Origin: Deltaproteobacteria bacterium
GTDB taxonomy: Bacteria > Myxococcota_A > UBA796 > UBA2385
Reading direction: 5' to 3'
Assembly (NCBI GenBank): GCA_016845285.1
Contig: JAERSX010000320.1
Span: 1-35,909 of the forward strand
DNA: 35,909 nt
How positions within the stretch are numbered: position 1 is the first letter of the stretch; every line of letters starts with the position of its first letter. The notes below the pieces were generated by a model, which was not told the DNA's origin, ran no database searches, and saw nothing but the letters and a program-made list of their open reading frames with translations. A program made the translations under genes and the position numbers. Positions 7,874-35,909 of the stretch are shown one piece after another.

Positions 7874-7912
7874 CGTCCCCAGCTGACACCCCAGTGGTGC
7901 CCGCTGGGGGCG
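7874..7912. terminator. GC-rich hairpin between convergent genes (possible bidirectional terminator)
   Basis: CGTCCCCAGC (7874-7883) pairs with GCTGGGGGCG (7903-7912), with one G-U pair. The loop is about 19 nt and contains a small CACC/GGTG stem. There is no U-tract. Confidence 0.3.
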
Positions 7913-7942
7913 TCGCCAATTGGGGAGAGAGAGGACCCCGCC

Positions 7943-20992: not shown

Positions 20993-21027
20993 GACCGACG
21001 CCTGGACGGCCACGCTGCCCGGCACCA

Positions 21028-22215
21028 CTACTCGGTGGTCAGGGTGGTCACCGAGAGGCTGAGGTCGAAGCCGAGATCGGAGCTCGTGGACGTAGCCTGG
21101 TGGACCTCGACAGCGATGATGTTGCTGCCGTCCTTGAAGAGCGAGACGTCGACGTCGAAGCTCTCGTAGTCGTACTCGTCTTCGCTGCTGATGGCATCGA
21201 CCGCGTAGTCGTCGTAGGCGATGTCGCCGTCGGCGAGGTTGTCCCGAATGGCTTCCTCGCCGTTGATCCAGACGATGGCGGCGTCGTCGACCATGAGCTG
21301 GATCTCCGCCTGGGAGGGTGTGCCCGACACCGTGGTCCACTTGCGGAAGTAGGTGGTGGGGTTCTTGTCAGAGGAGTTCGAGCCGTAGGACACCGTCGTG
21401 GTCTCACGAGAGTCGCCGTAGCCCAGGGGCGCCGCGCCTTCCGACCAGGCGCTGTGGTCGTAGTCGGCCTCGCGCCACTCGGTGCCAAGGTCCACCCCCA
21501 GGTCGTTGTACATCCACGGCGAGCCCGCCTCGAGGACCTCCACCACCTCGATGGAGACGATGGCGTTGGAGCTGCCGGGGGTCCCCACCGGCATCTGCGC
21601 CCACTCGTCGGCGCCGTCGCTCACCCGGGCATGCGCCTCGTCACCGGAGAGCTGCGGGTAGACCACCCAGTCCACCGGCGTGCCGTCGTTCATGAAGAGC
21701 CCCACGCCCTCGCCGCTCGCACTGAGCCGGAAGGCGAGCTCGTCGTCGCTCAGCTCGTCGGCATCGGTGGCGTAGAGCAGCAGGTGCCCGCCCGCTTCGA
21801 GGATCAGGCCATCCGGCAGCACGTGCTTGTTCTTGTCGTCGTAGTCGTCCGACATCCACATGCCACCCAGGTCCACCGCCTCGTCACCGGTGTTGTGCAG
21901 CTCGAGCCAGTCCGGCTCGGGGAGGCTCGCGTGCTCCAGAGACCCCTCGTTGGCGGGCATGAGCTCGTTGATGACCACCGACGGTGGCTCGGGTGGCTCA
22001 CCGGAGTCTCCGTCGCCGCCAGTACCCGAGTCGCCGCCGGTGCCCGAGTCGTCGCCGGTGCCCGAGTCGTCGCCGGTGCCGTCACCTGCGCCAGAGTCAT
22101 CGCCGGAGCCTGACCCATCACCAGAGCCTGCACCGCCTCCCGTGGCGGCACCGGAGTCGGTGCCCCCCGCGGGTTGCGTTGGGGAACAGGCCAAGACGAA
22201 CAAGAGGAACAGCAC
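21028..22215 (-). CDS. Lipoprotein with a lamin-tail domain (LTD) and a C-terminal beta-sandwich domain of the type found in CotH/LTD proteins
   Basis: GTG start with MLFLLFVLACS, then a (D/G)SG(T/A)G-rich linker. The LTD reads VINELMPAN...DWLELHNTGDEAVDLGGMWMSDD. The C-terminal part reads SPWMYNDLG..W..ADYDHSAW..GYGD..TTYFRKW..VWINGEE..IIAVEVHQ. Confidence 0.75.
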   Translation of the reverse strand: MLFLLFVLACSPTQPAGGTDSGAATGGGAGSGDGSGSGDDSGAGDGTGDDSGTGDDSGTGGDSGTGGDGDSGEPPEPPSVVINELMPANEGSLEHASLPEPDWLELHNTGDEAVDLGGMWMSDDYDDKNKHVLPDGLILEAGGHLLLYATDADELSDDELAFRLSASGEGVGLFMNDGTPVDWVVYPQLSGDEAHARVSDGADEWAQMPVGTPGSSNAIVSIEVVEVLEAGSPWMYNDLGVDLGTEWREADYDHSAWSEGAAPLGYGDSRETTTVSYGSNSSDKNPTTYFRKWTTVSGTPSQAEIQLMVDDAAIVWINGEEAIRDNLADGDIAYDDYAVDAISSEDEYDYESFDVDVSLFKDGSNIIAVEVHQATSTSSDLGFDLSLSVTTLTTE

Positions 22216-22256
22216 GAATCACCACCGGGTCGCGTTCGGGATTCTAAGATGCCTCC

Positions 22257-24371
22257 ATGCGCAGCCCATGGGCCACCCTCCCGATCGTCTCGCTCATCAT
22301 GGTCGCCTCGGCGGCCTGCCGGGGGGGAACGCCACCGACAACCACGACTCCACCCCCCGGAGACACAGCCGCGCCAGACGACTCGGGCGGTGGTGACGAC
22401 GGGGGAGACGAGGGCGGCGGCGACGACAGCGCCGAGCCCGAGGTGTACGAAGACCTCGTGATCAACGAGCTCATGGCGGGCAACCGCTTCGCCGTGGCCG
22501 ACCCGCTGGGGGGCAGCGCAGACTGGCTGGAGATCTTCAACCCGGGCGACGAGGACGTGGACCTCGACGGCTGGGGTCTGCTCGTAGACGGCGCCGACGA
22601 TCCCTATCTGCTGGAAGATCTGACCGTCGGGGCCGGGGCGCATGTGGTGATCTGGGCCGACGACGCATCGGGTCTGGGCCCCGACCACACCGACTTCACC
22701 CTCGAGCTCGCCGGCGGTGAGCTGAGCCTGCTCGCTCCAGACGAGACCGTGAAGGACACGGTGAGCTGGCCGGTCCAGGCCACTGACATCTCCGCAGCCC
22801 GCGCCCCGGACGGCGCGGCGCACTGGTCGCTCACGGCCAGCCCCACACCCGGCAGCGCCAACGCCGAGGGCGACGGCCGTGAAGGAGGCACCTCAGACGG
22901 CACCTGCGCCCTGGACTCCGATCTCGACGATCCCTACTTCTGGGAGGGTGAGTCCATCGAATTCGGCCTGAGCTGCACCGCCGACCTCTCGGAGGAGGAG
23001 GTGGAGCTGGAGGTGGTGCTCGCCCCAGACAGCTCAGCCTTCGCCGACCAGCGCTTCACCATGGAGAGTGGCCCCAGCGACGGCGGCCGGGTCGACGTGA
23101 TCTTCAGCGCGCGCCCCGCCGACGCCCTGGACCAGATCCCCGAGGCCGCCACCGTCACCTTCTGGCTGGCCGACAACCCCGACCTGACCGACGCCGTCGA
23201 CCCCGTCCCCACCGAGTACACCGAGGAGTGGGGCCTGCCGGTCATCCACATCGAGACCGGAGTCGACTTCTCCCAGACCTATGTCGACGCCACCATCACC
23301 CACATGGGCACGGCCTACGACGCCGAGGTCAAGGTGCGCGGCGCGTCGAGCGTGAGCTACCCCAAGCAGAGCTACACCCTGGACTTCGACGACGAGGAGC
23401 TCAAGATCGAGGGCTGGGACAGCCGCGAGCACATCGTGCTGACCAGCACCTTCGACGACAACAGCTACGTGCGCCAGAAGCTCGTCTTCGACATGTGGCA
23501 GGCCATGGCCGAGTACTGGGGCACGCTGCGTCTGACCCCTCGCACCTTCTTCGCGGTCGTCTACCTCGAGGGCGCGTACCACGGCCTGTACATCGCCACC
23601 GACCATGTGGACGAGGAGTTCGCCGTGGCCCTGGGCTTCGACTCGGGGGGCAACCTCTACAAGTCCGTCAGCCACGACGCCAACTTCTACAACACCGACG
23701 CCAACGGCTACGTCAAGAGCAGCTGGCACGACGGCTACGAGAAGAAGGAAGGCGATGATCTCGATGACTTCGACGACCTCGACGAGTGGGTCGAGTGGGT
23801 CGCAACCAACGATGCCGAGACCATCGTCGACGAGGCGGGCCGCCGCTTCTCGTTGACCGAGTTCATGGACTGGTTCCTGCTCGTCCACTTCACCGAGTGC
23901 CAGGACTCCGCCGGCAAGAACGCCTACTTCTACAACGTGGACGAGGGCGCCCCCGCCTTCCGTCTGACCCCCTGGGACTTCAACGCCGCCTTCGGCCAGA
24001 ACTGGTACACGCGCCGCGTCGACTCCGACTACCTGCAGACCTACGAGTGGCACAACCGGATCTTCTGGGCCATCGCCAACGTGGAGTCGGCCGACACCGA
24101 GCGCTGGGAGCGCTACGCCGCCATGCGCACCGACGGGCCGCTGAGTCCCGAGTGGCTGAAGGGCACCATCGACGCCTACTACGACGACATCCACCCTTCG
24201 GCCGAGCGCGACTGGGCGAAGTGGGGCGACCAGTACTACAGCTTCAGCCGCTGGGCGAGCACGCGCAACAGCGACGCCGACTGGACCGACTACGAGGGCG
24301 AGCGGGCCTATCTGGACACCTGGATCGACGAGCGGATCACCCTGTTCGATGAGGATCACCCTCTTGAATAG
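22257..24371 (+). CDS. Exported LTD-CotH fusion protein (CotH atypical kinase family)
   Basis: Lipoprotein signal MRSPWATLPIVSLIMVASAAC. The LTD reads VINELMAGN..DWLEIFNPGDEDVDLDGW. The CotH-like core reads VKVRGASSVSYPKQSYTLDF, YVRQKLVFDMW, GLYIATDHVDEEF, GNLYK, AGKNAYFY and TPWDFNAAFGQNW. Confidence 0.8.
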   Translation: MRSPWATLPIVSLIMVASAACRGGTPPTTTTPPPGDTAAPDDSGGGDDGGDEGGGDDSAEPEVYEDLVINELMAGNRFAVADPLGGSADWLEIFNPGDEDVDLDGWGLLVDGADDPYLLEDLTVGAGAHVVIWADDASGLGPDHTDFTLELAGGELSLLAPDETVKDTVSWPVQATDISAARAPDGAAHWSLTASPTPGSANAEGDGREGGTSDGTCALDSDLDDPYFWEGESIEFGLSCTADLSEEEVELEVVLAPDSSAFADQRFTMESGPSDGGRVDVIFSARPADALDQIPEAATVTFWLADNPDLTDAVDPVPTEYTEEWGLPVIHIETGVDFSQTYVDATITHMGTAYDAEVKVRGASSVSYPKQSYTLDFDDEELKIEGWDSREHIVLTSTFDDNSYVRQKLVFDMWQAMAEYWGTLRLTPRTFFAVVYLEGAYHGLYIATDHVDEEFAVALGFDSGGNLYKSVSHDANFYNTDANGYVKSSWHDGYEKKEGDDLDDFDDLDEWVEWVATNDAETIVDEAGRRFSLTEFMDWFLLVHFTECQDSAGKNAYFYNVDEGAPAFRLTPWDFNAAFGQNWYTRRVDSDYLQTYEWHNRIFWAIANVESADTERWERYAAMRTDGPLSPEWLKGTIDAYYDDIHPSAERDWAKWGDQYYSFSRWASTRNSDADWTDYEGERAYLDTWIDERITLFDEDHPLE

Positions 24372-26088
24372 CGCACCCTCGACACTGCTCGCGCTCCTGC
24401 TGATCGCCTGCAGCGGCACGTCAGAGGACCGGCCCGGTGCGGGTCCCGGGGACGCAGGCGACGGTGGCAACGAGGGGGGCGACACCGATCCCGGGGACAC
24501 CGACGAGGGGGGCGACGGCTACGACACAGGCCCCATCGAGCAGGTGCCCGGTGGCGACGGCGAGGTGATCTTCGAGCCCGACGGTGGTGGCTTCCTCTAC
24601 GAGGTGGACGTGAGCCTGCGCTCCTCGACGGGCACAGGCGAGCTCTGGTACTGCCTCGCGCCTCCCACCGAGGACGACTGCAGCTTCCGCGAGTACGACG
24701 AGCCCTTCGAGCTGGACGAGTCCATGGTCGTGCACGCGCAGCTCCGCATCGGAGGCGCAGCCGACGAGACCGTGGCCCGCGCCTTCTTCGAGGTGGACGA
24801 CGAGCTCGCGGACTGGGACACCAACGTTCCCCTCATGGTGCTCTGGAGCGACGACGACAAGCCGTCCAGCACCTCCGATCGGGTGCCCTTCGCTGTCACG
24901 GTGATCGATGCTGACGGCGGGCGCATCGGCCTGACCGACGAGCCCGAGAGCAGCGGCCGTGGGCGCATCCGCCTCCGTGGCTCGTCTTCATCGAGCTTCA
25001 GCAAGCCCAGCTACGACCTCGAGCTCTGGGCCGCAGACTCCGACGATGACCGCCCCGAAGAGATGCTCGGGATGCCCAAGGACGGCGACTGGGTGCTCTA
25101 CGGCCCGTACTACTACGACGACGGACTCATCCGGAACGCCCTGGCCTACCAGCTCAGCAACGACGTGGGTCGCTACGCCTCGCGCACCCGCTTCGTGGAG
25201 GTCTTCCTCGCCGAGGATGGCCGGTCCGTTCGCGAGCGGAACTACATGGGCGTCTACACCCTCGTCGAAGAGATCGAGCGCGGGGCCGATCGGGTGGACG
25301 TGACCGAGCTCACCCCGGACGACGTGGACCAGCCAGAGCTCACCGGCGGCTACGTCTTCAAGCGCGACCGCCCCGACGACGACGACAGCAGCCTGAGCTG
25401 CGGCTCGGCAGGCGGCGCCATCTACTTCGAGTACGGCCTGCAGGCCGTCGACCCCGAGGAGCACGAGCTCGTCGACGTCCAGCTGTCCTATGTGGACGGC
25501 TTGTGCGATGCCCTGGGCTACGCGACGGTCTCCGACGACTTCACCGACCCCGCCAGCGGCCTGCACTACACCGACATCATCGACGTCGACTCCTTCATCG
25601 ATCACCACATCATCAACGTGATCATGAAGAACCCCGACTCCTTCCGGCTGAGCGGCTACCTCCACAAAGACCGCGACGGCCTCATCCAGGCCGGCCCCGT
25701 CTGGGACTTCGACCGGGCCTCGGCCTCGGCCGACTACCGCAGCAGCTACCCCACCTGGTGGGACGCTTGGAACCAGACCTCGGACTGCACCCCCGTCTTC
25801 GAGTACGGCTGGTACGAAGGGCTGTTCAACGATCCCGAGTTCTCGGACGCCTACTGGACCCGCTTCGAGGAGCTCCTCGACGGACCGCTGAGCGCCGAGG
25901 CCATCGACGCCCACATCGTGGACATGGCGGACCAGCTCGACGAGGCGGCCGACCGCAACGCCGACACCTGGAGCTCGCGCAACTTCGACGACGAGACCGC
26001 GCTGATCCGCGACTGGATGCAGACCCGGGTCGCCTGGATCGGCGACTGCATCGCCACCTACGAGAACCCTCAGAGCTGCCCTGGCTGA
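24349..26088 (+). CDS. Exported CotH family protein (second paralogue)
   Basis: The ATG overlaps the previous gene by 23 nt. The signal is MRITLLNSAPSTLLALLLIACSG. The CotH-like core reads RIRLRGSSSSSFSKPSYDLEL, LIRNALAYQL, MGVYTLVEEIER, GGYVFKRD, IINVIMKNPDSFRLSGYLHKD and GPVWDFDRA. Confidence 0.8.
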   Translation: MRITLLNSAPSTLLALLLIACSGTSEDRPGAGPGDAGDGGNEGGDTDPGDTDEGGDGYDTGPIEQVPGGDGEVIFEPDGGGFLYEVDVSLRSSTGTGELWYCLAPPTEDDCSFREYDEPFELDESMVVHAQLRIGGAADETVARAFFEVDDELADWDTNVPLMVLWSDDDKPSSTSDRVPFAVTVIDADGGRIGLTDEPESSGRGRIRLRGSSSSSFSKPSYDLELWAADSDDDRPEEMLGMPKDGDWVLYGPYYYDDGLIRNALAYQLSNDVGRYASRTRFVEVFLAEDGRSVRERNYMGVYTLVEEIERGADRVDVTELTPDDVDQPELTGGYVFKRDRPDDDDSSLSCGSAGGAIYFEYGLQAVDPEEHELVDVQLSYVDGLCDALGYATVSDDFTDPASGLHYTDIIDVDSFIDHHIINVIMKNPDSFRLSGYLHKDRDGLIQAGPVWDFDRASASADYRSSYPTWWDAWNQTSDCTPVFEYGWYEGLFNDPEFSDAYWTRFEELLDGPLSAEAIDAHIVDMADQLDEAADRNADTWSSRNFDDETALIRDWMQTRVAWIGDCIATYENPQSCPG

Positions 26089-27302
26089 GGGCGCAGGCCT
26101 TCGCGGCGACGACGCGCCAGGAAGACCGGCAGCAGCCACCACAGGCTCGCCGCACCGCTGTTGCAGCCGCAGCCGCCCGGATCTGCCGGCGTGAGGGCGC
26201 CACCGCCGCTGTCGCCATCCGCGGTGCCGGTCCCGCCGTCGTCACCGGTGCCGCTCCCGCCGTCGTCCCCCGGCCCCGAGTCCCCGCTGTCGCCCGCCGG
26301 CGACGTGTCCTCGCTGGTGTCGGTCCCGCCCGTGTCGATGGGACCCCAGTCCACCTCGGCCGCGCAGCCCTCGAACTCTTCGCTCTCGACGCAGGGCACC
26401 TCCGCGATGAGCATGGGCACACCCTCGGTGGTGGTGAGCAGGCCGCCCTCGTGTCGATAGGCGATGGACTCGCCCTGGCCCTGCTCGTGGAGCATCACGC
26501 GGGTGGGAATCTCCCCCCAGTGAGCGTCGGGATCGTCGGGATCGGTGACCCACTCCCAGCCGCTGTCGTAGTTCCGTGCGATGAAGCGATCGCCCGCCGG
26601 CGACCAGTCCGCGCCCGTGAACGCACCCGGAGACGGCCACTCACCCACCGCCAGCTCGGTGAGCACCTCCACCTCTGCGGTCGCGTCGAGGCCCGTGGGC
26701 TCGAGGGGGGCACGGGCCACCCGCGGGGCGTCCTCCGACTCCATCCGCTCCTTGGTGACCAGGTAGATCTGCCCGGTGCAGGGATGCACCGCCACCGCCT
26801 CGGTGTCGCGCGGCGACTCGGGCCAGGTCAGCCTCCAGGTCGCCAACACCGGCGCGTCCTCACCCTCACCGGGCTCGGCGACCACGTAGATCTGCACCTC
26901 TTCGCGGGTACGGGCGTTGTCTCCTACGTCTGCGATGTAGAGGCAGTGCTCGGCATCGGATCCCTCGGGGCAGGGCCCATAGGACAGGTCCTCCCAGTCC
27001 TGGAATTCGGCGTCGGTGACCACGTGGGTATCGACGTGTTCGCCGCTGAGGTCGAAGGCATGGAGCACGGCGACGCCGCCTGCATCGTTGTGGCTGAACC
27101 AGATGCCACGCCGGGTCCGCGACCACGCGATGCCGCTGCTCTCGTTGATCTCCTCGGCCATGCACTCGCTGACCAGGGCCGCGGCGTCGTAGGAAGTGCA
27201 GGTGGTCGCCTCGCTGGGAGCACTCCAAGCAAGCGATCCCAAGACCGCCAGCACGGTCCTCGGCACCCTAGGGCCCGCATCTTTCCTCGACCACACGGGC
27301 AT
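26070..27302 (-). CDS. Secreted propeller-like protein with a MYXO-CTERM-like C-terminal sorting tail
   Basis: GGAAG lies upstream of ATG 27302, and a signal peptide is present. The N-terminal domain is paralogous to the product of 27461..28324 (ESSGIAWS..WFSHNDAGG, DWEDL, LYIADVGDN). An acidic Gly/Ser/Asp linker follows, then GGCGCNSGAASLWWLLPVFLARRRRE. Confidence 0.75.
   Translation of the reverse strand: MPVWSRKDAGPRVPRTVLAVLGSLAWSAPSEATTCTSYDAAALVSECMAEEINESSGIAWSRTRRGIWFSHNDAGGVAVLHAFDLSGEHVDTHVVTDAEFQDWEDLSYGPCPEGSDAEHCLYIADVGDNARTREEVQIYVVAEPGEGEDAPVLATWRLTWPESPRDTEAVAVHPCTGQIYLVTKERMESEDAPRVARAPLEPTGLDATAEVEVLTELAVGEWPSPGAFTGADWSPAGDRFIARNYDSGWEWVTDPDDPDAHWGEIPTRVMLHEQGQGESIAYRHEGGLLTTTEGVPMLIAEVPCVESEEFEGCAAEVDWGPIDTGGTDTSEDTSPAGDSGDSGPGDDGGSGTGDDGGTGTADGDSGGGALTPADPGGCGCNSGAASLWWLLPVFLARRRREGLRPQPGQL
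26073..26177 (-). other. MYXO-CTERM-like sorting signal
   Basis: A GGCGC motif, a hydrophobic helix LWWLLPVFLA and a basic cluster RRRR at the C-terminus match my recollection of TIGR03901. Confidence 0.55.
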
Positions 27303-27460
27303 TCACTTCCCACGTCACCTGACGGCCATCTTACCGCCACTGCCCCGCCAGTGATGTAAAGTAGCGGCTGATGGTTCTCAGACCCCCTTTCCGGCAACGT
27401 ACCGGTCATCGACGTCTACGTCGTCGGCCCGCGTCGACGACCGCAGCCCTGGAGGATGAC

Positions 27461-29343: not shown

Positions 29344-30161
29344 GCGGAGAGGGGCGGCGAGAGCTCAAGTACATCATCCACGAGGACCAGCGTGCCAAGG
29401 TCCTCGACATCGCGCGGAACGCCGTCTCCGCCGACGAGCACGCAGGCGTGCTCACCGACTACATCTCCGATGGCTTCCGCGGCCCGGACGGCGAGCTCGC
29501 CAAGGGCTACCGCGTCAACACCCTCTACATCGACACCCCGGACCTGCGGACCTACACGCAGCGGCTGCGGAGCGCCCACATCCGCAACGTCGTTCGCATC
29601 CGCACCTACGGCGAGCCGGGCGACGTCACCCCGGTCTTCATCGAGTCCAAGCGAAAGCTCCGCGACCGCGTGGTCAAGCACCGCGCGCTCGTCTGCAATG
29701 CGCAGGAGTGGGCGGCCGCCGACGCCGCACACCCGTGGGAGACCATCCTCCCGCCCCTCGAGGGCGCCTTGGGCCGAAAGGCGCAGCGCTGGCTCGCTCA
29801 CACGCGCCGCGACAAGCTCGACACCGTGTTGACCGTGCACTACGTCCGCGAGGTCTACACCGAGGGGCGCTCGCGCCTCACCATCGATCACCTCGTGAGC
29901 GCCACAGGAAAGCAGGATCCCACCTTCCTGCAAGGACCCGGCCTCACCCGCCTCATTCCCCAAGGCTTCCTCGTGCTCGAGCTCAAATTCGACATCCGCA
30001 AGCCCGCTTGGATGAGAGACATCTGCAGCGAGCTGAACCTCGTCGAGGAGCCCGTCTCCAAGTACGGCCTCGGCGTGGCTCACACCGTGCGGACCGATCG
30101 TGTGGGTGAGCGCAAGTACATCACCCCGCCCACCTTGACCCGTGCGGGGCGCGCCGCGTGA
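29340..30161 (+). CDS. VTC-domain / triphosphate-tunnel (TTM) polyphosphate-polymerase-like protein
   Basis: ATG 29340 overlaps the upstream stop (ATGA). The tunnel-strand motifs appear in order: RELKYII, VNTLYIDTP, VVRIRTY, VFIESKRK, RLTIDHLV, LVLELKF and SKYGLG. The upstream 443 aa of track ORF 28011..30161 are an Arg/Pro-rich out-of-frame artefact. Confidence 0.75.
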   Translation: MSGEGRRELKYIIHEDQRAKVLDIARNAVSADEHAGVLTDYISDGFRGPDGELAKGYRVNTLYIDTPDLRTYTQRLRSAHIRNVVRIRTYGEPGDVTPVFIESKRKLRDRVVKHRALVCNAQEWAAADAAHPWETILPPLEGALGRKAQRWLAHTRRDKLDTVLTVHYVREVYTEGRSRLTIDHLVSATGKQDPTFLQGPGLTRLIPQGFLVLELKFDIRKPAWMRDICSELNLVEEPVSKYGLGVAHTVRTDRVGERKYITPPTLTRAGRAA

Positions 30162-30841
30162 CGCCCTTCGAGGCCGAACAGCTCCTGCTCGACACCTCCA
30201 CCCTCGGCCTCGACGCCGTGGTGCAGTCGCTGCTGTTGAGCTTCATCCTGGGGCTCGTCGTGGCGGCGGTCTATCGGTGGTCGCTGCCCGAGCGCATCGT
30301 GCCGCCGCAGCTCATGGCCTCGCTGGCGCTCCTGCCCATGATCACCGCACTCGTGATGATGGTCATCGGCAACAGCCTCGCGCGGGCCTTCTCGCTCGTG
30401 GGCGCGCTGGCCATCGTTCGCTTCCGCACCCGCCTCCGCAGCACCTGGGACATCTCCTTCGTGTTCTTCGCGCTGGCCGTGGGCATCGGCTGCGGCGTGG
30501 GTGCCCTCGAGAACACCGCGCTCGGCACCCTGGTCATCGTGCTGGCCGTCGTGGTGCTCGGCGCGCTGCCGTTCACGCGCGCCGCCTCGGATGTACAGAC
30601 CCTGCGCTGCGACGTCGCCGCCTACGAGCTCGGCGAGGGCGCGCTGGCGCCGCTCATCGACAAATACGCCCGGCGGCGCTGGCTCACCACCGCGCAGTCC
30701 CAGCGCTTCGGCGAGGCCATGACGCTCACGTACCGCATCGTGCTGAAACGAAAGGCCCGTTTGGAGCCCCTGGTTCGCGAGCTCTCGGCCCTCGAAGGTG
30801 TGGAACGGGTCACGCTCATGAGCGAAGAGGGCAGCACTTAG
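30158..30841 (+). CDS. DUF4956-family integral membrane protein
   Basis: GTG overlaps the upstream stop (GTGA). Several TM segments are present, along with the signature GNSLARAFSLVGALAIVRFRTRLRSTWDISFVFFALAVGIGCG and a soluble C-terminal domain. Confidence 0.7.
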   Translation: MTPFEAEQLLLDTSTLGLDAVVQSLLLSFILGLVVAAVYRWSLPERIVPPQLMASLALLPMITALVMMVIGNSLARAFSLVGALAIVRFRTRLRSTWDISFVFFALAVGIGCGVGALENTALGTLVIVLAVVVLGALPFTRAASDVQTLRCDVAAYELGEGALAPLIDKYARRRWLTTAQSQRFGEAMTLTYRIVLKRKARLEPLVRELSALEGVERVTLMSEEGST

Positions 30842-30870
30842 GGCAAACTGCGGAAACGCACTGGAGAGAG

Positions 30871-31542
30871 ATGATGCGCCCCACGCTGATGGCCCCCATG
30901 TACTTGCTGTTTCCACTCACGCTGTTGGCCTGTGGCGACAAGGCGGGAGGCTTCGACTCTGGCGCTACCGTCACCGAGGACTGCACCGACGGTGTGGACA
31001 ACGACGGCAACGGTGCCGCCGACTGCGCCGACGCCGCTTGCGCCGACGATCCGGCCTGTGCCGAGGACGACGACGACGAGGGCGGCGACTCTGGGGGCAC
31101 GGGTGGCAACACCGACTACCCCGACGTGCTCGTCAACGAGTTCATGGCGAGCAACGCCACCACCCTCCAAGACGTGACCGGCGCCTGGCCCGACTGGATC
31201 GAGCTCTACAACGCATCTGACGAGACCGTCGACCTCGCGGGCTGGTTCATCACCGACAACCTGGACAACCAGGACAAGAGCGAGCTCCCCAGCTTCGTGC
31301 TCGAGCCCGGTGAGTTCCTCATCCTGTACGCCGACGACGACCAGGAAGACGGAGAAGACCACGTCAACTTCAGCCTCGACGCCGCTGGCGAGCAGATCGG
31401 CATCTACGGCCCCGACGGCTCCATGGTCGACGAGATCGAGTACGGCGAGCAGGCCACCGACGTGAGCATGGGCCGGGTGCCCGACGGCAGCAGCACCTGG
31501 GAGGTGCTCGACAGCGCCTCACCCGGCTCCAGCAACGAGTGA
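30871..31542 (+). CDS. Lipoprotein with a Cys-rich DGVDNDGNG motif and a lamin-tail domain
   Basis: I chose the internal ATG 30871 (or 30874) of track ORF 30142..31542, which follows GGAGAGAG. The signal is MMRPTLMAPMYLLFPLTLLACG. The LTD reads LVNEFMASN..WPDWIELYNASDETVDLAGWFITDN. Confidence 0.75.
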   Translation: MMRPTLMAPMYLLFPLTLLACGDKAGGFDSGATVTEDCTDGVDNDGNGAADCADAACADDPACAEDDDDEGGDSGGTGGNTDYPDVLVNEFMASNATTLQDVTGAWPDWIELYNASDETVDLAGWFITDNLDNQDKSELPSFVLEPGEFLILYADDDQEDGEDHVNFSLDAAGEQIGIYGPDGSMVDEIEYGEQATDVSMGRVPDGSSTWEVLDSASPGSSNE

Positions 31543-32964
31543 TCAGGCCGGGGACACCGCCAGGGTGTCCCGCGGTAGGGCGCCGAGCTCCTCGTAGAGC
31601 CACACGTTCGCCCGGATCGCCTTGCCGAAGATGCCGAGATGCATGGACTCGTTGGGTCCATGCGCCGTCGTCTTCGGATCCATCACGCCGTTGAGGATCA
31701 GCGGCAGGTCGCCGTACTTGCGGCCGAAGAGCGCCACGAAGGGAATGGAGCCACCCACGCCCACCTGGAGCAGCTTGCGGCCCCAGACGCGCTCGTAGGC
31801 CCGGTCAGCGGCCTCGAAGGCCGGCCCTCTCGGCGTGTAGAGCCAGCTCTCGCCGTCCCAGCCCGTGGGCGACACGGTGACCTTGACGCCACCCGGCGGG
31901 TTGGTGGTCACCACCTCGGTGATGGCGTCCCGAAGCTCGTCCGCCTCCTGCCCTGGGGCGAGCCGCACCGAGAGCGTCGCTGTGGCCTTGGTGCGCAGGG
32001 CGTTCTTCTTGGTCTCGGCGGTGGGCAGCGTGGTCGCCACCACCGTCAGCGACGGCTGACGCCAGAGCCACTCGGCCGGCGAGCGCCCATGGGTGGGCAA
32101 GGGGTCGACCCCATCGATGATGTGGGCGCCGTCACGGATGATCTCGGCGTTCAGCGGCACGTCCCAGGAGTCCCGCCGCCAGTCGTCATCGATGTCCTCG
32201 ACACGCCCCACCTTGAGCCGGCCGTCCTCGTCGGTGAGCCGCGCGATGAGCCGACACAGGGCCACGCTCACATCGGGCACCATGTTGCCCCAGAGCCCGC
32301 TGTGGCCGTCGGCATCGAGCGCCTCCACAGCGAGCTCCAGCTCCATGAGGCCGCGCAGGGACACGGTCAGGCCAGGGATGTCCACCGAGGGATTCTCGCA
32401 GTCGGTGAGCACCATCACGTCCGAGGAGAAGGCCTCGGGGAAGGTGTCCATGTAGCGCTCGAGGTTGGGGGAGCCGATCTCCTCCTCGCCCTCGATGAGC
32501 AGCTTGAGGTTGCAGGGCAAGCCACCAGACTCCTCGAGCCAGGCGCGGATGGCGGCGAGATGGCTGACCCAGCCACCCATGTCGTCGGCGCTGCCCCGGG
32601 CGTAGAGCCGACCGTCGAGCTCCACACCCTCGTGGGGATCGGTGCGCCAGGGCTCGCCCTTCACGGGCTGAAGATCGAGGTGACCGTAGATCAGCACGGT
32701 GGGAGCGGAGGGGTCGGCATGCAGCCACTCGGCGGCCACGCATGGCAGGGTGCCCTCGAGGTGGAGCAAACGGGCGTTGTCGAGGCCCAGCGCCGACAGG
32801 TCGTCGCGGATTCGCTCGGCGAGGCGATGGACGTCGTCGAAGTGACTCGGATCACACGAGATCGCTGCGTAGGACAGGTAATCCTTGAGACGCGCGACGG
32901 TCTCGTCGAACTGTTCGGTTGCCCGACGCTCGACAGCGGTGGCGGAGCTCGCGATGGTGGACAT
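31543..32964 (-). CDS. M20/M25/M40 family metallopeptidase (dipeptidase/ArgE-like)
   Basis: I chose ATG 32964 because GGGAGG lies 6 nt upstream. Metal-site motifs: IYGHLDLQPV, ARGSADDMGG, IEGEEEIGS and HGPNESMH. Confidence 0.85.
   Translation of the reverse strand: MSTIASSATAVERRATEQFDETVARLKDYLSYAAISCDPSHFDDVHRLAERIRDDLSALGLDNARLLHLEGTLPCVAAEWLHADPSAPTVLIYGHLDLQPVKGEPWRTDPHEGVELDGRLYARGSADDMGGWVSHLAAIRAWLEESGGLPCNLKLLIEGEEEIGSPNLERYMDTFPEAFSSDVMVLTDCENPSVDIPGLTVSLRGLMELELAVEALDADGHSGLWGNMVPDVSVALCRLIARLTDEDGRLKVGRVEDIDDDWRRDSWDVPLNAEIIRDGAHIIDGVDPLPTHGRSPAEWLWRQPSLTVVATTLPTAETKKNALRTKATATLSVRLAPGQEADELRDAITEVVTTNPPGGVKVTVSPTGWDGESWLYTPRGPAFEAADRAYERVWGRKLLQVGVGGSIPFVALFGRKYGDLPLILNGVMDPKTTAHGPNESMHLGIFGKAIRANVWLYEELGALPRDTLAVSPA
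31551..31571. terminator. Hairpin GGGACACC-gccag-GGTGTCCC immediately after the plus-strand operon stop, embedded in the 3' end of the convergent M20 gene
   Basis: Perfect 8-bp stem with a 5-nt loop, read directly. It begins 9 nt after TGA 31540-31542. There is no U-tract. Confidence 0.35.
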
Positions 32965-33019
32965 GACACCTCCCAGAGGGCGCGCATCGTAGATCACCCG
33001 ACGCCCTCACGGGTCGGAG

Positions 33020-35035
33020 CTACCAGCTGTCCCCGCCGGAACCGCCGTAGGCTCCGATGTCGGCGGTCGTGCCGTCAGCGTCCAGCAGCGCGGGATCTCC
33101 GGCATCGATGGAGGGCGACACCGAGTGCAGACGGAGGTCCCAGGCGGCGGGGTCGGCGCTGCTGATGTCGGTGTAGACCGGGTCCTGGGCCAGGTTGCCG
33201 TCGGTGCCCACGGGGTCGTCCATGCCGCTCCAGGTGTCTGCGCCCTGGGCTGGCACGTTGGTGTAGGTCCAGCTCAGCGCGTCGAGCTCGGTCACGAGCA
33301 CCGCGCTGCCCGCGCCCTCCCCTCCACTGCTCGAGACACTGTTGTCGACGATGTTGAGGTGGGAGACGGTGGCGGTGCCTGGCTGCTTGTCCATGGAGCC
33401 CACGAAGAGTCCACCGCCGTGGGCGTCGGCCTCGCCCGTGGAGATGACCGCGTTGCCCACGACGTCTCCGAAGTGCAGATCGAGCGGCTGGGAGAAGGTC
33501 CAGGCGTCGATGCCACCACCGCGGGCCGAGTCGAGCACGGCCTCGGCGGTGTTGCCCGCAGCGATGACCTGCTGGAGCGCGGGCGCGGAGTCCACCGGGT
33601 TGATGTGGACGCCCCCGCCGCGCGCGCCCCTGTAGCCGTAGATGTCGTTGCCGCGCAGGTCCACGTGCTCGAGCGCGGCGCCCTCGGTCAGGTACAGCCC
33701 CCCGCCAAAGGCGTAGCCGCTGTGGGAGGGGAGGGTCACCTCGGCGCGAAGGGTGTTGGCGTGGGCCGTGAGGTGGGTGACCGTGGCGCCCGGATCGTCG
33801 ACGTGCGCCGTGCCGTAGACGTAGCTGGCGGTCTGCGAGGTGGTGGTCAGGTCGTTGTCGCTGAGATCCAGCGCAGCCCAGGTGCTCTCGAGCTCGGTCT
33901 CGGACCAGCCCACCAGCGAGAGCACCCCGTACGAAGTGGCCGACTCGGGGGAGCTGAGGCTCACGCTGCAGCCCGTCACGCTCAGCCCGCTGACCGTGGC
34001 GGCGGCGCCGGACACGCGGGCGAACCACCCTTGCTGCTGCGCCGACTCGGTGCAGGCCAGACCGAGGTGGCTGTCGGTCATCGACAGGTCGCTGCCCGTC
34101 AGCGCGCCACCGTCGAGGAACAGCACGCCTCCCGTCGCGTAGCAGGAGCTGGGCTCGCCGACGCTGCTGACATCGAATTCACTCACCTCGAGACCCATGA
34201 GGTCGAGATCCGACTCGGTGGAGTAGATCAAGCCCCCTTCCGTGCCGAGGGAGCCTTCGGCTGAGCCCTGCTCGTAGGTGATCGTCACGTCCGAGACGGA
34301 GATCTCCACCAGCGACAAGGTCGCTGAGCTGGCACGCACGAGCAGGCCCCGGAGGTCGCCCCCGTCGCGGAGCACCGCGCTGTGCCCGGTGAACACCAGG
34401 TCTTCGAGATGTGCCTCGCTCCCGGCCAGCCTCAGCAGGCCCCCTTCGATGGGGTCTCCCTGGGTCACCTCGGCTCGATCGATGCCGGTCACCGTGAACC
34501 CTCGGAGCGTCAGGGCCCCGACCTGTGAGTCATCGACCACCCCCTCGTCGTCCAGGTTGTCCACGGTGAGCAGGGGCAGCTCGCCGGCCAGGTCGAGGGT
34601 GGTCTCGGCCGGGCCCGCACGGCCCGTGATCGTCAGGGTCCGGCCAGTCAGGTCGAGGCGCTCGGCGTAGGTGCCCGGCTCCACACAGATCTCGGAGCCC
34701 TGTCCGACAGCGTCGACGGCATCCTGCAGCGTGGCGTAGGTGGAGGGCACGGTGTGCCGGTCGATGCTGCCGTCGCAGTCATTGTCCACGCCGTCGCAGC
34801 CGACCTCGTCCGCATCTGGGTGCACGGCGGGGTCGGTGTCGTCGCAGTCGGTCTCCTGGTCGAAGCCGTCGCCGTCGGCATCGAGCGGCCCCGCGGTACC
34901 GCCCGTGTCGTCCGCTGAGGCCGTGTCAGCGGTGTCCGATGGCTCCGGGGACTCTGGGACGGCGCCCCCTCCACCCTGCTCCTTGTCCCCGCAGGCCACG
35001 AGGGCGAGGCAGAACAACAGGGGTCTCGGGCGCAC
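33020..35035 (-). CDS. Lipoprotein with a Cys-rich putative metal-binding motif and a right-handed parallel beta-helix-like body
   Basis: GTG 35035 with GAGGAGGA upstream, and the signal MRPRPLLFCLALVACG. The Cys-rich motif reads DCDDTDPAVHPDADEVGCDGVDNDCDG. A long Gly/Ser/Thr/Asp-rich repetitive region has recurring GGG(L/I/V) turns. Confidence 0.7.
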   Translation of the reverse strand: MRPRPLLFCLALVACGDKEQGGGGAVPESPEPSDTADTASADDTGGTAGPLDADGDGFDQETDCDDTDPAVHPDADEVGCDGVDNDCDGSIDRHTVPSTYATLQDAVDAVGQGSEICVEPGTYAERLDLTGRTLTITGRAGPAETTLDLAGELPLLTVDNLDDEGVVDDSQVGALTLRGFTVTGIDRAEVTQGDPIEGGLLRLAGSEAHLEDLVFTGHSAVLRDGGDLRGLLVRASSATLSLVEISVSDVTITYEQGSAEGSLGTEGGLIYSTESDLDLMGLEVSEFDVSSVGEPSSCYATGGVLFLDGGALTGSDLSMTDSHLGLACTESAQQQGWFARVSGAAATVSGLSVTGCSVSLSSPESATSYGVLSLVGWSETELESTWAALDLSDNDLTTTSQTASYVYGTAHVDDPGATVTHLTAHANTLRAEVTLPSHSGYAFGGGLYLTEGAALEHVDLRGNDIYGYRGARGGGVHINPVDSAPALQQVIAAGNTAEAVLDSARGGGIDAWTFSQPLDLHFGDVVGNAVISTGEADAHGGGLFVGSMDKQPGTATVSHLNIVDNSVSSSGGEGAGSAVLVTELDALSWTYTNVPAQGADTWSGMDDPVGTDGNLAQDPVYTDISSADPAAWDLRLHSVSPSIDAGDPALLDADGTTADIGAYGGSGGDSW

Positions 35036-35117
35036 GGGAATCCTCCTCGAGGCCCAGAGTAGTCTCAGCCACCGCCGCCGCGGGCGCTACCCGGCGGTCC
35101 GCTCCAGGCACACCACC

Positions 35118-35909
35118 TCAGTCGGGGACGCGGTCCTGGTAGACCGCGGCTCGCTCCTCAAGCCACGCGTACAGATACTCTTTCTCTTCTTCGTAGTCGG
35201 TCCAGTCGTTGTACGAGTTGCGAGAACCCGCCCAGCCCGAGTAGCTGCGGTAGGCATCGCCCCAGCGATCCCAGTCCCGGGCCGCGGCCTCGTCGATCTC
35301 CTCGTAGTAGCCATCGACCTGGGCCAGCATCCATACCAACTCAAAGGGGCCGTCTGTGCGCATGGATCTGAAGCGATCCCAGAGAGCCTCTTCACTCGAA
35401 GACACGCCCTGGATGGCCTTGAAAACCCGATTTGTGCTCTCGTACTCGTTGATGTCGTCGACGTCGATGCGCAGGGTGTACCAGTTCTGCCCCCAGGCGT
35501 GGTTGAAGTCCCAGGGCACGTACCGCCACGTGTCTTCGCTTGGGTCATGGTACAGGTAGCTGTTCTTTCCGGCCGAGTCTTCGCTGAGCGAGTAGGAGAC
35601 CAGGAGGAACCAGTCCATCCACTCCTCGAGGCTGAAGTGGTCGCTCGCGTTGGCCACGAGCTGGGCATCCGAGCTTCCGCCCGTGAAGGCGACCAGCTCC
35701 TCCAGATCGCTGAAGTCGGTCGATGGCTCGCCTTCCTTCTTTTCGTAGCCCGACGAGAGCGAGCTCTTCGCGTTGCCCGAGGTATCGGTGAGGTAGAAGT
35801 TGGCGTTGTGGTTGACCGCCTTGTACAGGTTGCCCGAGCTGTCGAAGCCCATGTGACGGATGAACTCGTTGTCCGGGCGGTCCAGTCCGATGAACAGGCC
35901 GTTGTAGAC
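35118..35909 (-). CDS. CotH family protein (third paralogue); N-terminus lies beyond the right window edge
   Basis: The frame is open from 35909 (VYNGLFIGLDRPDNEFIRHMGFDSSGNLYK...) to TGA at 35118. Motifs read: AGKNSYLY and VPWDFNHAWGQNW. It aligns by eye with the C-terminal half of the 22257..24371 product. Confidence 0.8.
   Translation of the reverse strand, partial: VYNGLFIGLDRPDNEFIRHMGFDSSGNLYKAVNHNANFYLTDTSGNAKSSLSSGYEKKEGEPSTDFSDLEELVAFTGGSSDAQLVANASDHFSLEEWMDWFLLVSYSLSEDSAGKNSYLYHDPSEDTWRYVPWDFNHAWGQNWYTLRIDVDDINEYESTNRVFKAIQGVSSSEEALWDRFRSMRTDGPFELVWMLAQVDGYYEEIDEAAARDWDRWGDAYRSYSGWAGSRNSYNDWTDYEEEKEYLYAWLEERAAVYQDRVPD

Follow-up and report, generated by a model that had tools for sequence, protein, structure and literature searches.

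Between positions 21028 and 35909 of the window analysed here, a stretch of DNA of 35,909 nucleotides, genes for exported CotH kinase-like and LTD proteins lie beside those for a VTC-like enzyme, a DUF4956 membrane protein and a periplasmic adaptor. Do these genes form one system, and would that system make polyphosphate (polyP) and move it out of the cell? An initial annotation had proposed that the VTC and DUF4956 proteins, possibly extended across the periplasm by the HlyD-like one, make and extrude polyP.

Gene organisation and conservation

Gene calling by GC3 frame analysis and Pfam scans yielded twelve genes (Table 1), confirming the cluster of CotH, LTD, propeller, membrane-fusion protein (MFP), VTC and DUF4956 genes that had been recognised initially. 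The three LTD proteins of the initial list include the LTD-CotH fusion g2, a gene that is counted among the CotH proteins as well and so appears twice in that list. Stop/start overlaps of 4 nt each join g5 to g6, g6 to g7 and g7 to g8, and a gap of 29 nt separates g8 from g9. The start of g3 overlaps the stop of g2 by 23 nt, g1 and g2 are divergent, and the N-terminal part of g12 lies beyond the window end.

Table 1. Genes of the cluster, with window positions and Pfam matches.
Gene	Positions	Strand	Product	Pfam match
g1	21028-22215	-	Acidic LTD lipoprotein, 395 aa	LTD, E=2.4e-15
g2	22257-24371	+	Exported LTD-CotH fusion, 704 aa, canonical CotH type	LTD + CotH, E=2e-44
g3	24349-26088	+	CotH lipoprotein, 579 aa, variant type	CotH, E=9e-48
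g4	26070-27302	-	Secreted beta-propeller paralogue of g5, 410 aa	No match
g5	27371-28324	+	YjiK-like beta-propeller lipoprotein; first gene of core operon	No match
g6	28321-29343	+	MacA/HlyD-type periplasmic MFP, N-terminal TM anchor, 340 aa	
g7	29340-30161	+	Stand-alone cytoplasmic VTC/TTM-type enzyme, 273 aa, pI 9.6	VTC, E=6e-26
g8	30158-30841	+	DUF4956 inner-membrane protein, 227 aa	DUF4956, E=5e-13
g9	30871-31542	+	Small, very acidic LTD lipoprotein, 223 aa; last gene of core operon	LTD, E=6e-16
g10	31543-32997	-	Cytoplasmic M20 dipeptidase-like protein	Peptidase_M20 + M20_dimer
g11	33020-35035	-	Acidic lipoprotein, 671 aa; MopE-type Cys-rich motif and predicted beta-helix	Cu-binding_MopE, E=1.5e-8
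g12	35118-35909	-	Third CotH, C-terminal 263 residues, g2 type	CotH, E=8.5e-26, profile positions 79-320

VTC and DUF4956 genes are adjacent in 48 of 48 distinct loci from Myxococcota-type genomes, Verrucomicrobiota, Kiritimatiellota and Firmicutes. The counts given below refer to 37 Myxococcota-type, six Verrucomicrobiota/Kiritimatiellota and four Firmicutes loci; accessory genes were counted within 10 kb of VTC in the 37 Myxococcota-type loci. The gene order is repeated in L054 (94% DNA identity) and in L001 (VTC 62% identical), both of which have a g1 orthologue at the same position, and the overlapping stop/start couplings of the core were also called in L001 and L004. The g12 orthologue of L054 is 535 residues long; after it come genes for LTD, alkaline phosphatase, CotH, LTD and beta-helix proteins.

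The export signals that had been noted on the cluster proteins are present. Lipoboxes occur in g1 (VLAC), g3 (LIAC), g5, g9 (LLAC) and g11 (LVAC), the signal peptide of g2 ends in a cysteine (...VASAAC), and g6 is anchored by its N-terminal TM segment. The signal peptide of g1 is atypically short: it is immediately preceded by a stop codon and runs for nine residues before the cysteine. g4 combines a Sec signal with a C-terminal Gly/Asp-rich linker and, after this, a MYXO-CTERM-like tail (GCGCNSG followed by hydrophobic residues and RRRR); weak NCBIfam matches confined to this tail are to a MXYO-CTERM-anchored family, a myxosortase-dependent phytase-like protein and Synerg-CTERM. A search for signal peptides in g7 and g10 found none.

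The VTC-like enzyme

A profile of the g7 family (A2) matches the catalytic domain of yeast Vtc4 (3g3q) with E=2e-7. The counterparts of Vtc4 R264, R266, K281, Y359, R361, E426, S457 and K458 are invariant among 11 homologues. In yeast all of these residues are needed for polyP synthesis, and K458 is the single residue that distinguishes active Vtc4 from inactive Vtc2 and Vtc3. Because the essential residues shared with Vtc4 are all kept, among them the lysine by which the active subunit is recognised, g7 looks active and is a candidate polyP polymerase. The equivalent of the N-terminal lysine K200 of Vtc4 was not aligned by HMMER in the g7 family; a counterpart may be placed only from the spacing of an invariant R-x-E-x-K motif.

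Membrane and envelope components

In the AF2 model of g8 (pLDDT 79) a beta-alpha-beta-beta-alpha-beta domain comes after a set of hydrophobic helices, and the matches of this model in the PDB are ACT domains and the C-terminal domain of MgtC (2lqj). Pfam MgtC is also matched by 10 of the 48 DUF4956 family members, and R88-F89-R90 is invariant in the g8 family, inside a conserved RFRTRLRS motif. As modelled, g8 is an MgtC-like helical membrane domain joined to a cytoplasmic ACT/ferredoxin-like domain, and we regard it as a candidate membrane partner or conduit for the VTC product. DUF4956 resembles MgtC and not the yeast Vtc1 channel, to which neither sequence nor fold similarity was found. MgtC is known for a regulatory role and not as a transporter.

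NCBIfam 'secretion protein HlyD' matches g6 below cut-off (E=4e-11). A profile of g6 orthologues (A5) matches MacA (E about 1e-12) as well as EmrA, MexJ and CusB, and half of the orthologues (12/24) match Pfam HlyD_D23 and HlyD_3. Judging from these matches g6 is a true MFP, and its earlier description as HlyD-like was correct. MFP genes are present in 36 of the 37 Myxococcota-type loci, the sole exception being cut at a contig end. In the six Verrucomicrobiota/Kiritimatiellota loci (the PVC set) the arrangement is VTC-DUF4956-HlyD-OEP (TolC-like), flanked by housekeeping genes and with no ABC, RND or MFS transporter nearby. The four Firmicutes loci contain no MFP, and across the loci examined MFP/OMF genes correlate with a diderm envelope. 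Neither the window nor the conserved neighbours in the Myxococcota-type loci yielded a gene for an outer-membrane channel.

These observations bear on an alternative in which the cluster is a phosphate-economy island without export. VTC and DUF4956 would then make membrane-associated intracellular polyP or take part in MgtC-like phosphate sensing or regulation, the exported proteins would scavenge phosphorus independently, and the MFP would serve other secretion. The relationship of DUF4956 to MgtC fits this reading, together with its ACT-like cytoplasmic domain, a kind typically found where small molecules are sensed, as does the alkaline phosphatase of related clusters. Work on Pel-dependent aggregation in S. 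intermedius points the same way: it cites MgtC as tied to phosphate uptake and PhoR, and its authors suggest that polyP may remain cytoplasmic. Left unexplained, however, are the MFP gene that overlaps its core neighbours and recurs in nearly every Myxococcota-type locus, the compact PVC set lacking any other inner-membrane transporter, and the absence of the MFP from monoderm loci. We therefore consider a phosphate economy without export unlikely.

CotH proteins and the link to pel operons

Aligned with B. cereus CotH (5JD9), g2 matches it at the catalytic Asp, at the Asn in position D+5 and at the Asp that binds metal. The g12 CotH domain is 49% identical to that of g2 and contains DSAGKN and PWDFN motifs. 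In g3 a serine replaces the catalytic-loop Asn (DSFRLS, compared with DSAGKN in g2 and g12), a variant common to the g3 orthologues in L010, L015 and L016. Both catalytic Asp residues are retained in the cluster CotH proteins.

CotH genes occur within 10 kb of VTC in only 14 of the 37 Myxococcota-type loci, and the remaining 23 keep the core; CotH is therefore an optional accessory of VTC-DUF4956. In two Verrucomicrobiota loci the core is bordered by genes for giant LTD-CotH proteins. With Myxococcota and Verrucomicrobiota represented here, and Firmicutes and bifidobacteria in the literature, independent observations now link CotH to the core in at least four phyla. The initial statement that CotH, VTC and DUF4956 genes are neighbours in unrelated genomes is correct, and is already in print: in streptococci, clostridia and bifidobacteria the three genes directly adjoin pelDEADAFG of Gram-positive pel operons, and no function was assigned to them there. 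Deletion of the CotH and DUF4956 genes changes Pel levels and Pel-dependent aggregation; deletion of the VTC gene in S. intermedius gave no aggregation phenotype.

The cluster might instead modify a matrix or exopolymer, the role suggested for accessory genes of Gram-positive pel operons, with exported CotH phosphorylating surface proteins or glycans, VTC-DUF4956 in a supplying or regulating role, and a protein or polysaccharide as the envelope cargo. The pel contiguity and the deletion phenotypes argue for this, and so do Cthe_2159-type carbohydrate-binding beta-helix genes after VTC-DUF4956 in two Firmicutes loci and the predicted beta-helix lipoprotein g11. Against it, Pfam scans revealed no glycosyltransferase, pel or polysaccharide export gene in the window or as a conserved neighbour, and the MFP is still there in core-bearing Myxococcota-type loci from which CotH is missing. 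Matrix modification thus seems somewhat less likely still.

Other exported proteins

LTD genes are the most tightly linked accessory, being present in 31 of the 37 Myxococcota-type loci. The LTD domains of the cluster contain 25-30 acidic residues versus 2-3 basic ones. Asp and Glu make up 23% of g9, and Lys and Arg 1.8%; this protein also features an acidic double-disulfide repeat (NCBIfam acid_disulf_rpt, below cut-off). The C-terminal half of g1 has no Pfam match. The idea that LTD domains tether components of the system is weakened as far as simple tethering to a polyanion is concerned. Because these domains are extremely acidic, they are unlikely to bind polyP directly, and any binding would require cation bridging. 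The acidity of the exported proteins, which makes direct polyanion binding unexpected, is a point against export. An exported cytochrome encoded outside the cluster is as acidic as the cluster proteins.

g4 and g5 are 28% identical, with reciprocal phmmer matches in the loci. The AF2 model of g5 (pLDDT 87.4) is an all-beta propeller whose best PDB match is the C-terminal domain of YjiK (3qqz), bearing out the earlier description of both proteins as propeller-like. Propeller genes are found in 24 of the 37 loci. g5 has more than 3400 homologues, many from Polyangiaceae and Nannocystis and none with a Pfam domain; its invariant acidic residues are E72, D91, D120, E122, D123, D140, E158, E184 and E305. 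The closest homologue (P0011) begins 30 residues later, and the true start of g5 may be a GTG at about 27461.

The repetitive body of g11 is taken to be a beta-helix by prediction; homologues are present in 14 of the 37 loci, and L054 has only a 197-bp remnant at the same spot. L054 has, among its CotH/LTD genes, one for an alkaline phosphatase that is a lipoprotein and retains the TDSAAS motif intact; this family is found in five loci. The position of g10 is held by an M20 gene in L054 and by an AAA_14/DUF4143 gene in L001, and M20 did not emerge among the conserved neighbour clusters of the related loci. Its original inclusion in the system is not supported, and g10 is probably a bystander.

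The TTM/CYTH superfamily also holds triphosphatases and adenylate cyclases. The VTC-like protein could thus act as a triphosphate-tunnel hydrolase or a nucleotide cyclase, sending signals to the MgtC-like protein, amid unrelated Myxococcota surface proteins. The size of the g5 family, which makes it a common secreted family, and the acidity of the cytochrome outside the cluster would agree with this. Given that g7 falls in the VTC subfamily with the Vtc4-specific lysine missing from inactive paralogues, and that its neighbours recur far above the rate for unrelated genes, also in other phyla, we find this reading improbable. Chance grouping or lineage-specific paralogue expansion without any functional link, to which the multiple copies of CotH, LTD and propeller genes and their varying number and order among relatives might point, is hardly credible and already contradicted by the synteny of the core, MFP and LTD genes and by the CotH link across phyla.

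A proposed polyphosphate export system

We put the probability at about one half that the cluster is a conserved envelope system, its core a polymerase-driven polyP export apparatus and its exported accessories variable. The proposal that VTC, DUF4956 and HlyD-like proteins make and extrude polyP gains substantial comparative support from the intact Vtc4-type residues, the invariable VTC-DUF4956 adjacency, the near-constant MFP, the PVC set and the MFP-free Firmicutes loci; the MgtC-like rather than Vtc1-like nature of DUF4956 counts against it, as do the negative search for a channel gene in the window and among conserved neighbours of the Myxococcota-type loci and the S. intermedius VTC deletion that left aggregation unchanged. 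Sequence comparison and gene context lead us to infer that polyP is the product and undergoes export, with DUF4956 as the conduit, and that the accessories act on the polymer.

In such an apparatus g7 would polymerise polyP from ATP at the cytoplasmic face while docked on the MgtC-like inner-membrane protein g8. The growing chain would pass g8, either through it or along it, to enter a MacA-like tube formed by g6, and would exit via a TolC-type outer-membrane channel, encoded beside the core in Verrucomicrobiota/Kiritimatiellota and presumably elsewhere in the present genome. At the cell surface the LTD lipoproteins, CotH kinase-like enzymes, YjiK-like propellers and beta-helix lipoprotein would bind, process or use the polymer, with a PhoA-type alkaline phosphatase lipoprotein as a further accessory in close relatives. 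As in the yeast VTC complex, synthesis would be coupled to membrane transit. If the proposal is true, the cluster represents an undescribed bacterial route for making polyP and pushing the polymer out of the cell.

Gene content and organisation of the cluster

The G+C content of the window is about 68%, which crowds mechanical ORF lists; genes were chosen by third-position G+C and then confirmed with Pfam. This procedure confirmed the twelve-gene cluster of CotH, lamin-tail-domain (LTD), propeller, membrane-fusion protein (MFP), VTC and DUF4956 genes that the initial annotation had described from the sequence. Even at E≤10, Pfam left g4, g5 and g6 without a match, along with the C-terminal half of g1 and the N-terminal regions of g2 and g3.

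Genes of the cluster at 21028-35909
Gene	Coordinates	Strand	Length (aa)	Assignment
g1	21028-22215	-	395	LTD protein
g2	22257-24371	+	704	LTD + CotH (Pfam CotH E=1.6e-44)
g3	24349-26088	+	579	CotH (Pfam E=9.4e-48)
g4	26070-27302	-	410	No Pfam match; propeller paralogue of g5
g5	27371-28324	+	317	No Pfam match; beta-propeller
g6	28321-29343	+	340	Membrane-fusion protein (MFP)
g7	29340-30161	+	273	VTC (Pfam E=6.2e-26)
g8	30158-30841	+	227	DUF4956
g9	30871-31542	+	223	LTD protein
g10	31543-32997	-	484	M20 peptidase
g11	33020-35035	-	671	MopE motif and repetitive body
g12	35118-35909	-	263	CotH (Pfam E=8.5e-26); N-terminus lies past the window end

Four-base overlaps at each of the g5/g6, g6/g7 and g7/g8 junctions and a gap of 29 bases between g8 and g9 lead us to read g5-g9 as a single operon. 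The g2/g3 overlap is 23 bases. A promoter and terminator scan of 20900-35909 gave no signal exceeding shuffled controls. Among the ORFs of the window, Pfam detected no pel gene, no glycosyltransferase and no DUF4832. On the 5' side of the cluster, Pfam identifies methylmalonyl-CoA mutase subunits, MeaB, a TetR regulator, a multihaem cytochrome and a large PKS, none of which has an apparent link to the cluster.

Some of the remaining ORFs of the window deserve a brief description. An ORF of >2231 codons on the minus strand (1-6693) continues beyond the window start and contains AMP-binding (fatty-acyl-AMP ligase-like), KS, AT, two PP-binding (best-scoring at 1649-1715) and class-III aminotransferase domains; by its domain content it is a predicted hybrid PKS with a terminal aminotransferase. 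The cytochrome (10670-12676, plus strand, 668 aa) has multihaem cytochrome c motifs, with matches to c3/c7 and MtrC/MtrF-like domains. ORFs at 7943-9430 (-), 6879-7856 (+) and 13681-14733 (-) have a good coding signature and no Pfam match, as do two competing ORFs on opposite strands, 12436-13671 (+) and 12487-13614 (-).

Most cluster products carry export signals. Lipoboxes are present in g1, g3, g5, g9 and g11, and the signal peptide of g2 has a cysteine at its end. g4 combines a Sec-type signal with a C-terminal tail consisting of GCGC, a hydrophobic stretch and RRRR (GCGCNSGAASLWWLLPVFLARRRR), where NCBIfam matches to MYXO-CTERM-anchored families are all sub-threshold. g6 has a single N-terminal membrane helix and g8 several hydrophobic helices; signals are lacking in g7 and g10, and g7 has no hydrophobic segment either. 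The proposed division into a single cytoplasmic enzyme, a single integral membrane protein, a single periplasmic adaptor and numerous exported proteins is thus correct by this survey of signals and transmembrane segments. The signal of g1 is unusual, with nine residues ahead of the lipobox cysteine, no basic n-region and a stop codon directly upstream (22188-22218). The orthologue in locus L001, from a related genome, has a normal signal, and the short form in the window may stem from an error in sequencing or assembly, or from degradation of the export signal.

The exported proteins of the cluster are highly acidic (18-23% D+E, 2-7% K+R) and contain long acidic linkers rich in Gly, Asp, Ser and Thr (21900-22150, 22330-22440, 24430-24520 and 26150-26330; an example from g1 is GDDSGTGDDSGTGGDSGTGGDGDSG). 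Linker length varies between the window and a close relative (395 vs 316 aa for g1, 410 vs 355 aa for g4). The cytochrome outside the cluster is equally acidic, with a net charge of -75, so that acidity may in part be a general trait of the exported proteins of this organism. The initial annotation had the LTD domains tethering components to polyphosphate (polyP). Each LTD domain here contains 25-30 acidic and 2-3 basic residues, an extreme acidity that makes simple electrostatic tethering to polyP unlikely; we reject the LTD domains as binders of this simple kind, and the tether idea is weakened to that extent. Binding bridged by cations is possible.

Conservation of the core in related loci

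Word-based searches returned few homologues of g7. The related locus L001, with a VTC protein 62% identical to g7, has the gene order MeaB, LTD (-), CotH, CotH, propeller (-), propeller, MFP, VTC, DUF4956, LTD, with further CotH and LTD genes beyond that block. The M20 peptidase g10 is not conserved in L001, and we rejected it as a member of the system; it is probably a bystander. Locus L054, 94% identical to the window in DNA sequence, keeps the gene order through the M20 gene, which is followed by CotH, LTD, alkaline phosphatase, CotH, LTD and beta-helix genes. The alkaline phosphatase is a lipoprotein with the PhoA motif TDSAAS, and its family recurs in five loci. g11 is absent from the same position in L054 save for a 197-bp remnant (L054 13000-13196); on this comparison, g11 is a recent presence/absence polymorphism within the cluster.

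A scan of species-representative genomes yielded 47 further loci. Six-frame ORFs of these loci were compared first with the proteins of the window and, in a second round, with HMMs derived from the matches. Thirty-seven distinct loci are of the Myxococcota type, and in these we counted neighbours of VTC on the available flanks, up to 10 kb. DUF4956 is present in 37/37 and an MFP in 36/37, the exception being a locus that begins at the VTC gene. LTD proteins occur in 31 of the 37 loci and g5-like propellers in 24, while CotH and g11-like proteins are found in 14 each. DUF4956 also adjoins VTC in 11/11 distant loci. CotH, VTC and DUF4956 genes are neighbours in unrelated genomes, as the initial annotation had put it. 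CotH is an uncommon family; given a few copies per ~10-Mb genome, the chance of finding one within 10 kb of any particular gene is, by a rough estimate, about 1%, and we infer that 14/37 is a large excess. In the Myxococcota-type loci, LTD lipoproteins are nearly core and CotH is optional.

The six Verrucomicrobiota/Kiritimatiellota (PVC) loci (L043, L044, L046, L048, L049 and L051) encode VTC-DUF4956, then an HlyD protein recognised by Pfam and then a TolC-family outer-membrane protein (OEP), the latter on the opposite strand in L044. The flanks of these loci hold housekeeping genes: seryl-tRNA synthetase, MurJ, TilS, PrmC, FtsH, phosphoglucomutase and arginyl-tRNA synthetase. To judge from gene content, the only possible inner-membrane partner of the PVC adaptor and channel is DUF4956 with VTC. 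In two Verrucomicrobiota loci, the gene beside the core encodes a giant protein that combines CotH with four or five LTD domains. The adaptor is absent from the four Firmicutes loci; comparison with the PVC loci indicates that MFP and outer-membrane channel are seen only where there is an outer membrane. Two of the Firmicutes loci encode a carbohydrate-binding protein of the Cthe_2159 family next after VTC-DUF4956 (L047:6035-7837 and L052:5133-7259). BLASTP found no similarity between this protein and g11, and the two 'beta-helix' neighbours can therefore not be called homologous.

Two further observations concern the collected loci. Small conserved ORFs without a Pfam match lie directly 3' of DUF4956 in 4-6 of the more distant Myxococcota-type loci, among them L028 (10067-10750 and 10716-11543) and L004 (11500-12207); L004 also has an upstream ORF of 358 aa without a Pfam match (7065-8141). 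These ORFs could include extra components of the system, possibly an outer-membrane part. Fourteen loci (L014, L020-L023, L027-L029, L031, L033, L034, L036, L037 and L039) come from MAGs deposited as 'uncultured Enterobacterales' or 'Rickettsiales'. By their VTC, MFP, DUF4956 and LTD genes, these loci fall in with the Myxococcota type, and the deposited names look like placeholder or mistaken taxonomy.

The VTC, DUF4956 and MFP proteins

g7 matches the Pfam VTC domain with 91.8 bits (cut-off, 23). Single-sequence phmmer searches of the PDB with g7 and g3 gave no useful match, and profiles were required. A profile of g7 and ten homologues matches the catalytic domain of yeast Vtc4 (3g3q) with E=1.9e-7. 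The Vtc4 residues R264, R266, K281, Y359, R361, E426, S457 and K458 correspond to R86, R88, K104, Y168, R170, E214, S240 and K241 of g7, and all eight are invariant in 11 homologues. HMMER left the segment around Vtc4 K200 unaligned; from the invariant R-x-E-x-K spacing, its equivalent is probably K10 of the RRELKY sequence. A cryo-EM study of the yeast VTC complex established that these Vtc4 residues bind triphosphate and Mn2+ and are required for polyP synthesis, that K458 alone sets active Vtc4 apart from inactive Vtc2/Vtc3, and that polyP synthesis is coupled to membrane transit.

g7 thus shares with yeast VTC the Pfam domain and the triphosphate- and metal-binding residues, including the Vtc4-specific lysine. 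In contrast to the yeast proteins, g7 is a stand-alone protein of 273 aa without an SPX domain and without a C-terminal Vtc1-type (DUF202) transmembrane domain; on these grounds we do not regard the core of the cluster as a member of the VTC complex family. The membrane partner also differs, DUF4956 being a probable relative of MgtC without detectable similarity to Vtc1, and the bacterial system adds an MFP (plus an outer-membrane factor, OMF, in PVC bacteria) for its two-membrane envelope. The stand-alone VTC family of bacterial size is large, with 10,541 representatives (50%-identity clusters) at E≤1e-3; the best 150 of these are 174-310 aa long. Reviews describe VTC as the eukaryote-type polymerase and ascribe bacterial polyP synthesis to PPK1 and PPK2.

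The predicted structure of g8 (pLDDT 79) consists of a hydrophobic helix bundle and a C-terminal domain of β-α-β-β-α-β topology. Foldseek matches the latter, weakly (E about 1e-2, target-normalised TM-score 0.57), to ACT domains and the C-terminal domain of MgtC (2lqj); it returned no match beyond this domain, and the DUF4956 profile had no significant sequence match in the PDB. Pfam MgtC matches were obtained for 10/48 members of the DUF4956 family (best E=4e-5), while g8 itself matches DUF4956 only. With a helical membrane domain ahead of a cytoplasmic domain of the ACT/ferredoxin-like type, g8 resembles MgtC/SapB/YhiD proteins, but it has a Pfam family of its own, invariably comes with a VTC enzyme and has a conserved basic motif, RFRTRLRS. 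The idea that g8 is a Vtc1-like channel is unsupported, as neither the profile search of the PDB nor Foldseek revealed any similarity.

g6 alone scores below the cut-off of the HlyD models. A profile of 24 g6 orthologues matches MacA (E about 1e-12, best 6e-13), EmrA, MexJ and CusB in the PDB, and 12 of the 24 orthologues directly match Pfam HlyD_D23 and HlyD_3. On this evidence, we assign g6 as a genuine MFP of the HlyD/MacA/AcrA superfamily. Like the adaptors of MacAB-TolC, EmrAB-TolC and HlyBD-TolC, of which MacA and EmrA are its nearest solved structures, g6 has an N-terminal membrane anchor, and the PVC loci supply a TolC-family OEP protein after the MFP. The likeness of the core to tripartite efflux systems is confined to adaptor and channel. 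Neither the cluster nor the flanks of the PVC four-gene sets yielded an ABC, RND or MFS transporter domain; where an efflux system has its pump, the operon has DUF4956 as its sole membrane protein and the VTC enzyme as its sole energy-handling protein. Pfam scans found no gene for a TolC-family OMF within the window; the OMF for g6 may be encoded elsewhere in the genome.

The exported accessory proteins

Bacillus CotH acts in the mother-cell cytoplasm on coat proteins. The window proteins belong to the same Pfam family, and the CotH profile matches the B. cereus CotH structure 5JD9 with E=7.5e-38. In a MAFFT alignment with 5JD9, both aspartates of the catalytic centre (catalytic and metal-binding) are kept without exception by g2, g3, g12 and nine relatives. 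Motif positions in the alignment with B. cereus 5JD9 served to assign the counterparts of B. subtilis D228 and D251; the D228Q and D251A substitutions abolish activity of B. subtilis CotH (PMC7821199). Unlike the spore-coat CotH structures (5JD9/5JDA), the window proteins bear export signals as well as additional domains (LTD, N-terminal extensions). g3 also differs at the asparagine five residues past the catalytic aspartate, which is kept in g2 and g12 and replaced by serine in g3 and its orthologues (DSFRLS vs DSAGKN; L010:15080-16915, L015:4796-6928 and L016:14068-15765). CotH proteins of the g3 type have an extra insertion beyond the glycine-rich region. The serine in the catalytic loop marks g3 as a distinct, possibly altered CotH subtype, which could be an enzyme of altered specificity or a pseudokinase.

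g5 has >3400 database homologues, many of them from Polyangiaceae and Nannocystis, and no Pfam domain. Its AlphaFold2 model (47 sequences; pLDDT 87.4) is an all-β propeller, the best PDB match being the C-terminal domain of E. coli YjiK. g4 and g5 are paralogues with 28% sequence identity. Nine invariant acidic residues in the g5 family suggest a metal site. We rejected the possibility that g4 and g5 are β-propeller phytases, as the NCBIfam 'phytase-like' match spans the sorting tail only.

Relation to the pel accessory genes

According to Whitfield et al. 2020, the accessory genes contiguous with Gram-positive pel operons include cotH, a polyP polymerase gene, DUF4956 and DUF4832, with linkage of CotH, VTC and DUF4956 in streptococci, clostridia and bifidobacteria. 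Our analysis adds linkage of CotH to VTC-DUF4956 in Myxococcota and Verrucomicrobiota. In Streptococcus intermedius (SIR_1594-1592; mBio 2025), deletion of the CotH and DUF4956 genes changes Pel levels and aggregation; the VTC mutant has no aggregation phenotype, and the authors called the function undetermined. The same study did not find the three-gene synteny outside pel loci; the window and the collected loci establish that it exists without pel.

The Gram-positive set and the present cluster share the same three adjoining families, with CotH predicted to be secreted and VTC predicted to be cytoplasmic with intact catalytic residues; DUF4956 of the pel set has been described as MgtC-like transmembrane helices plus an ACT domain. 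The present cluster differs in lacking the pelDEADAFG operon and DUF4832, in belonging to a diderm host and in having an MFP in its core. It also adds LTD lipoproteins, propellers and a beta-helix protein, and has CotH in multiple copies. Published mentions of DUF4956 are few. Our literature search found pel-accessory observations of the trio and no function, no MFP or TolC link and no LTD link; published work assigning a function to the cluster was not found.

Discussion

We estimate a probability of about 0.5 that the core is a polymerase-driven apparatus for polyP export. VTC would polymerise polyP at the membrane, DUF4956 would anchor VTC and pass the chain across the inner membrane, and the MFP with a TolC-type channel would carry it over the periplasm and the outer membrane. 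By analogy, such an apparatus is best read as working like the yeast VTC complex, in which the polymer passes through a membrane partner as it is synthesised at the cytoplasmic face. The suggestion that VTC, DUF4956 and the HlyD-like adaptor export polyP is considerably strengthened at the level of gene content by the adjacency of VTC and DUF4956 in 48 loci, the MFP in 36/37 and the PVC gene sets; the original interpretation as a whole is partly supported.

The weak points of the export reading are the MgtC-like character of DUF4956, the lack of an OMF gene in the window and the absence of a phenotype of the S. intermedius VTC mutant. Sequence and fold similarity to MgtC would fit a regulatory role of DUF4956 as well as a conduit. 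With these reservations, and taking the sequence evidence together, polyP export by the core is best described as a putative new bacterial form of coupled polyP synthesis and translocation, with non-homologous membrane parts and exported accessories.

A reading that joins core and accessories is improbable on present evidence. Extruded polyP would serve as both energy and phosphoryl currency in an extracytoplasmic space devoid of ATP, exported CotH enzymes (which are Fam20-like) would use polyP instead of ATP to phosphorylate surface proteins or glycans, and the neighbouring alkaline phosphatase and the highly acidic LTD, propeller and beta-helix proteins, which probably bind Ca2+, would turn polyP over or arrange it in a surface layer bridged by cations. 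If true, bacteria would have their own version of the secreted-kinase, polyP and alkaline-phosphatase chemistry of animal mineralising matrices.

If the VTC family is indeed wired to a membrane partner and envelope adaptors, bacteria would have a second route to polyP, dedicated to export, beside PPK1/PPK2, and there would be a genetic handle on the origin of extracellular and surface polyP. A concrete test would follow of how exported enzymes with a kinase fold, such as CotH, could operate in a compartment lacking ATP. MFP/TolC assemblies would have a novel kind of drive, polymerisation, in place of an ABC, RND or MFS pump. Pel-dependent aggregation in S. intermedius, a human pathogen, is affected by this trio of genes, so that the mechanism would bear on biofilms.
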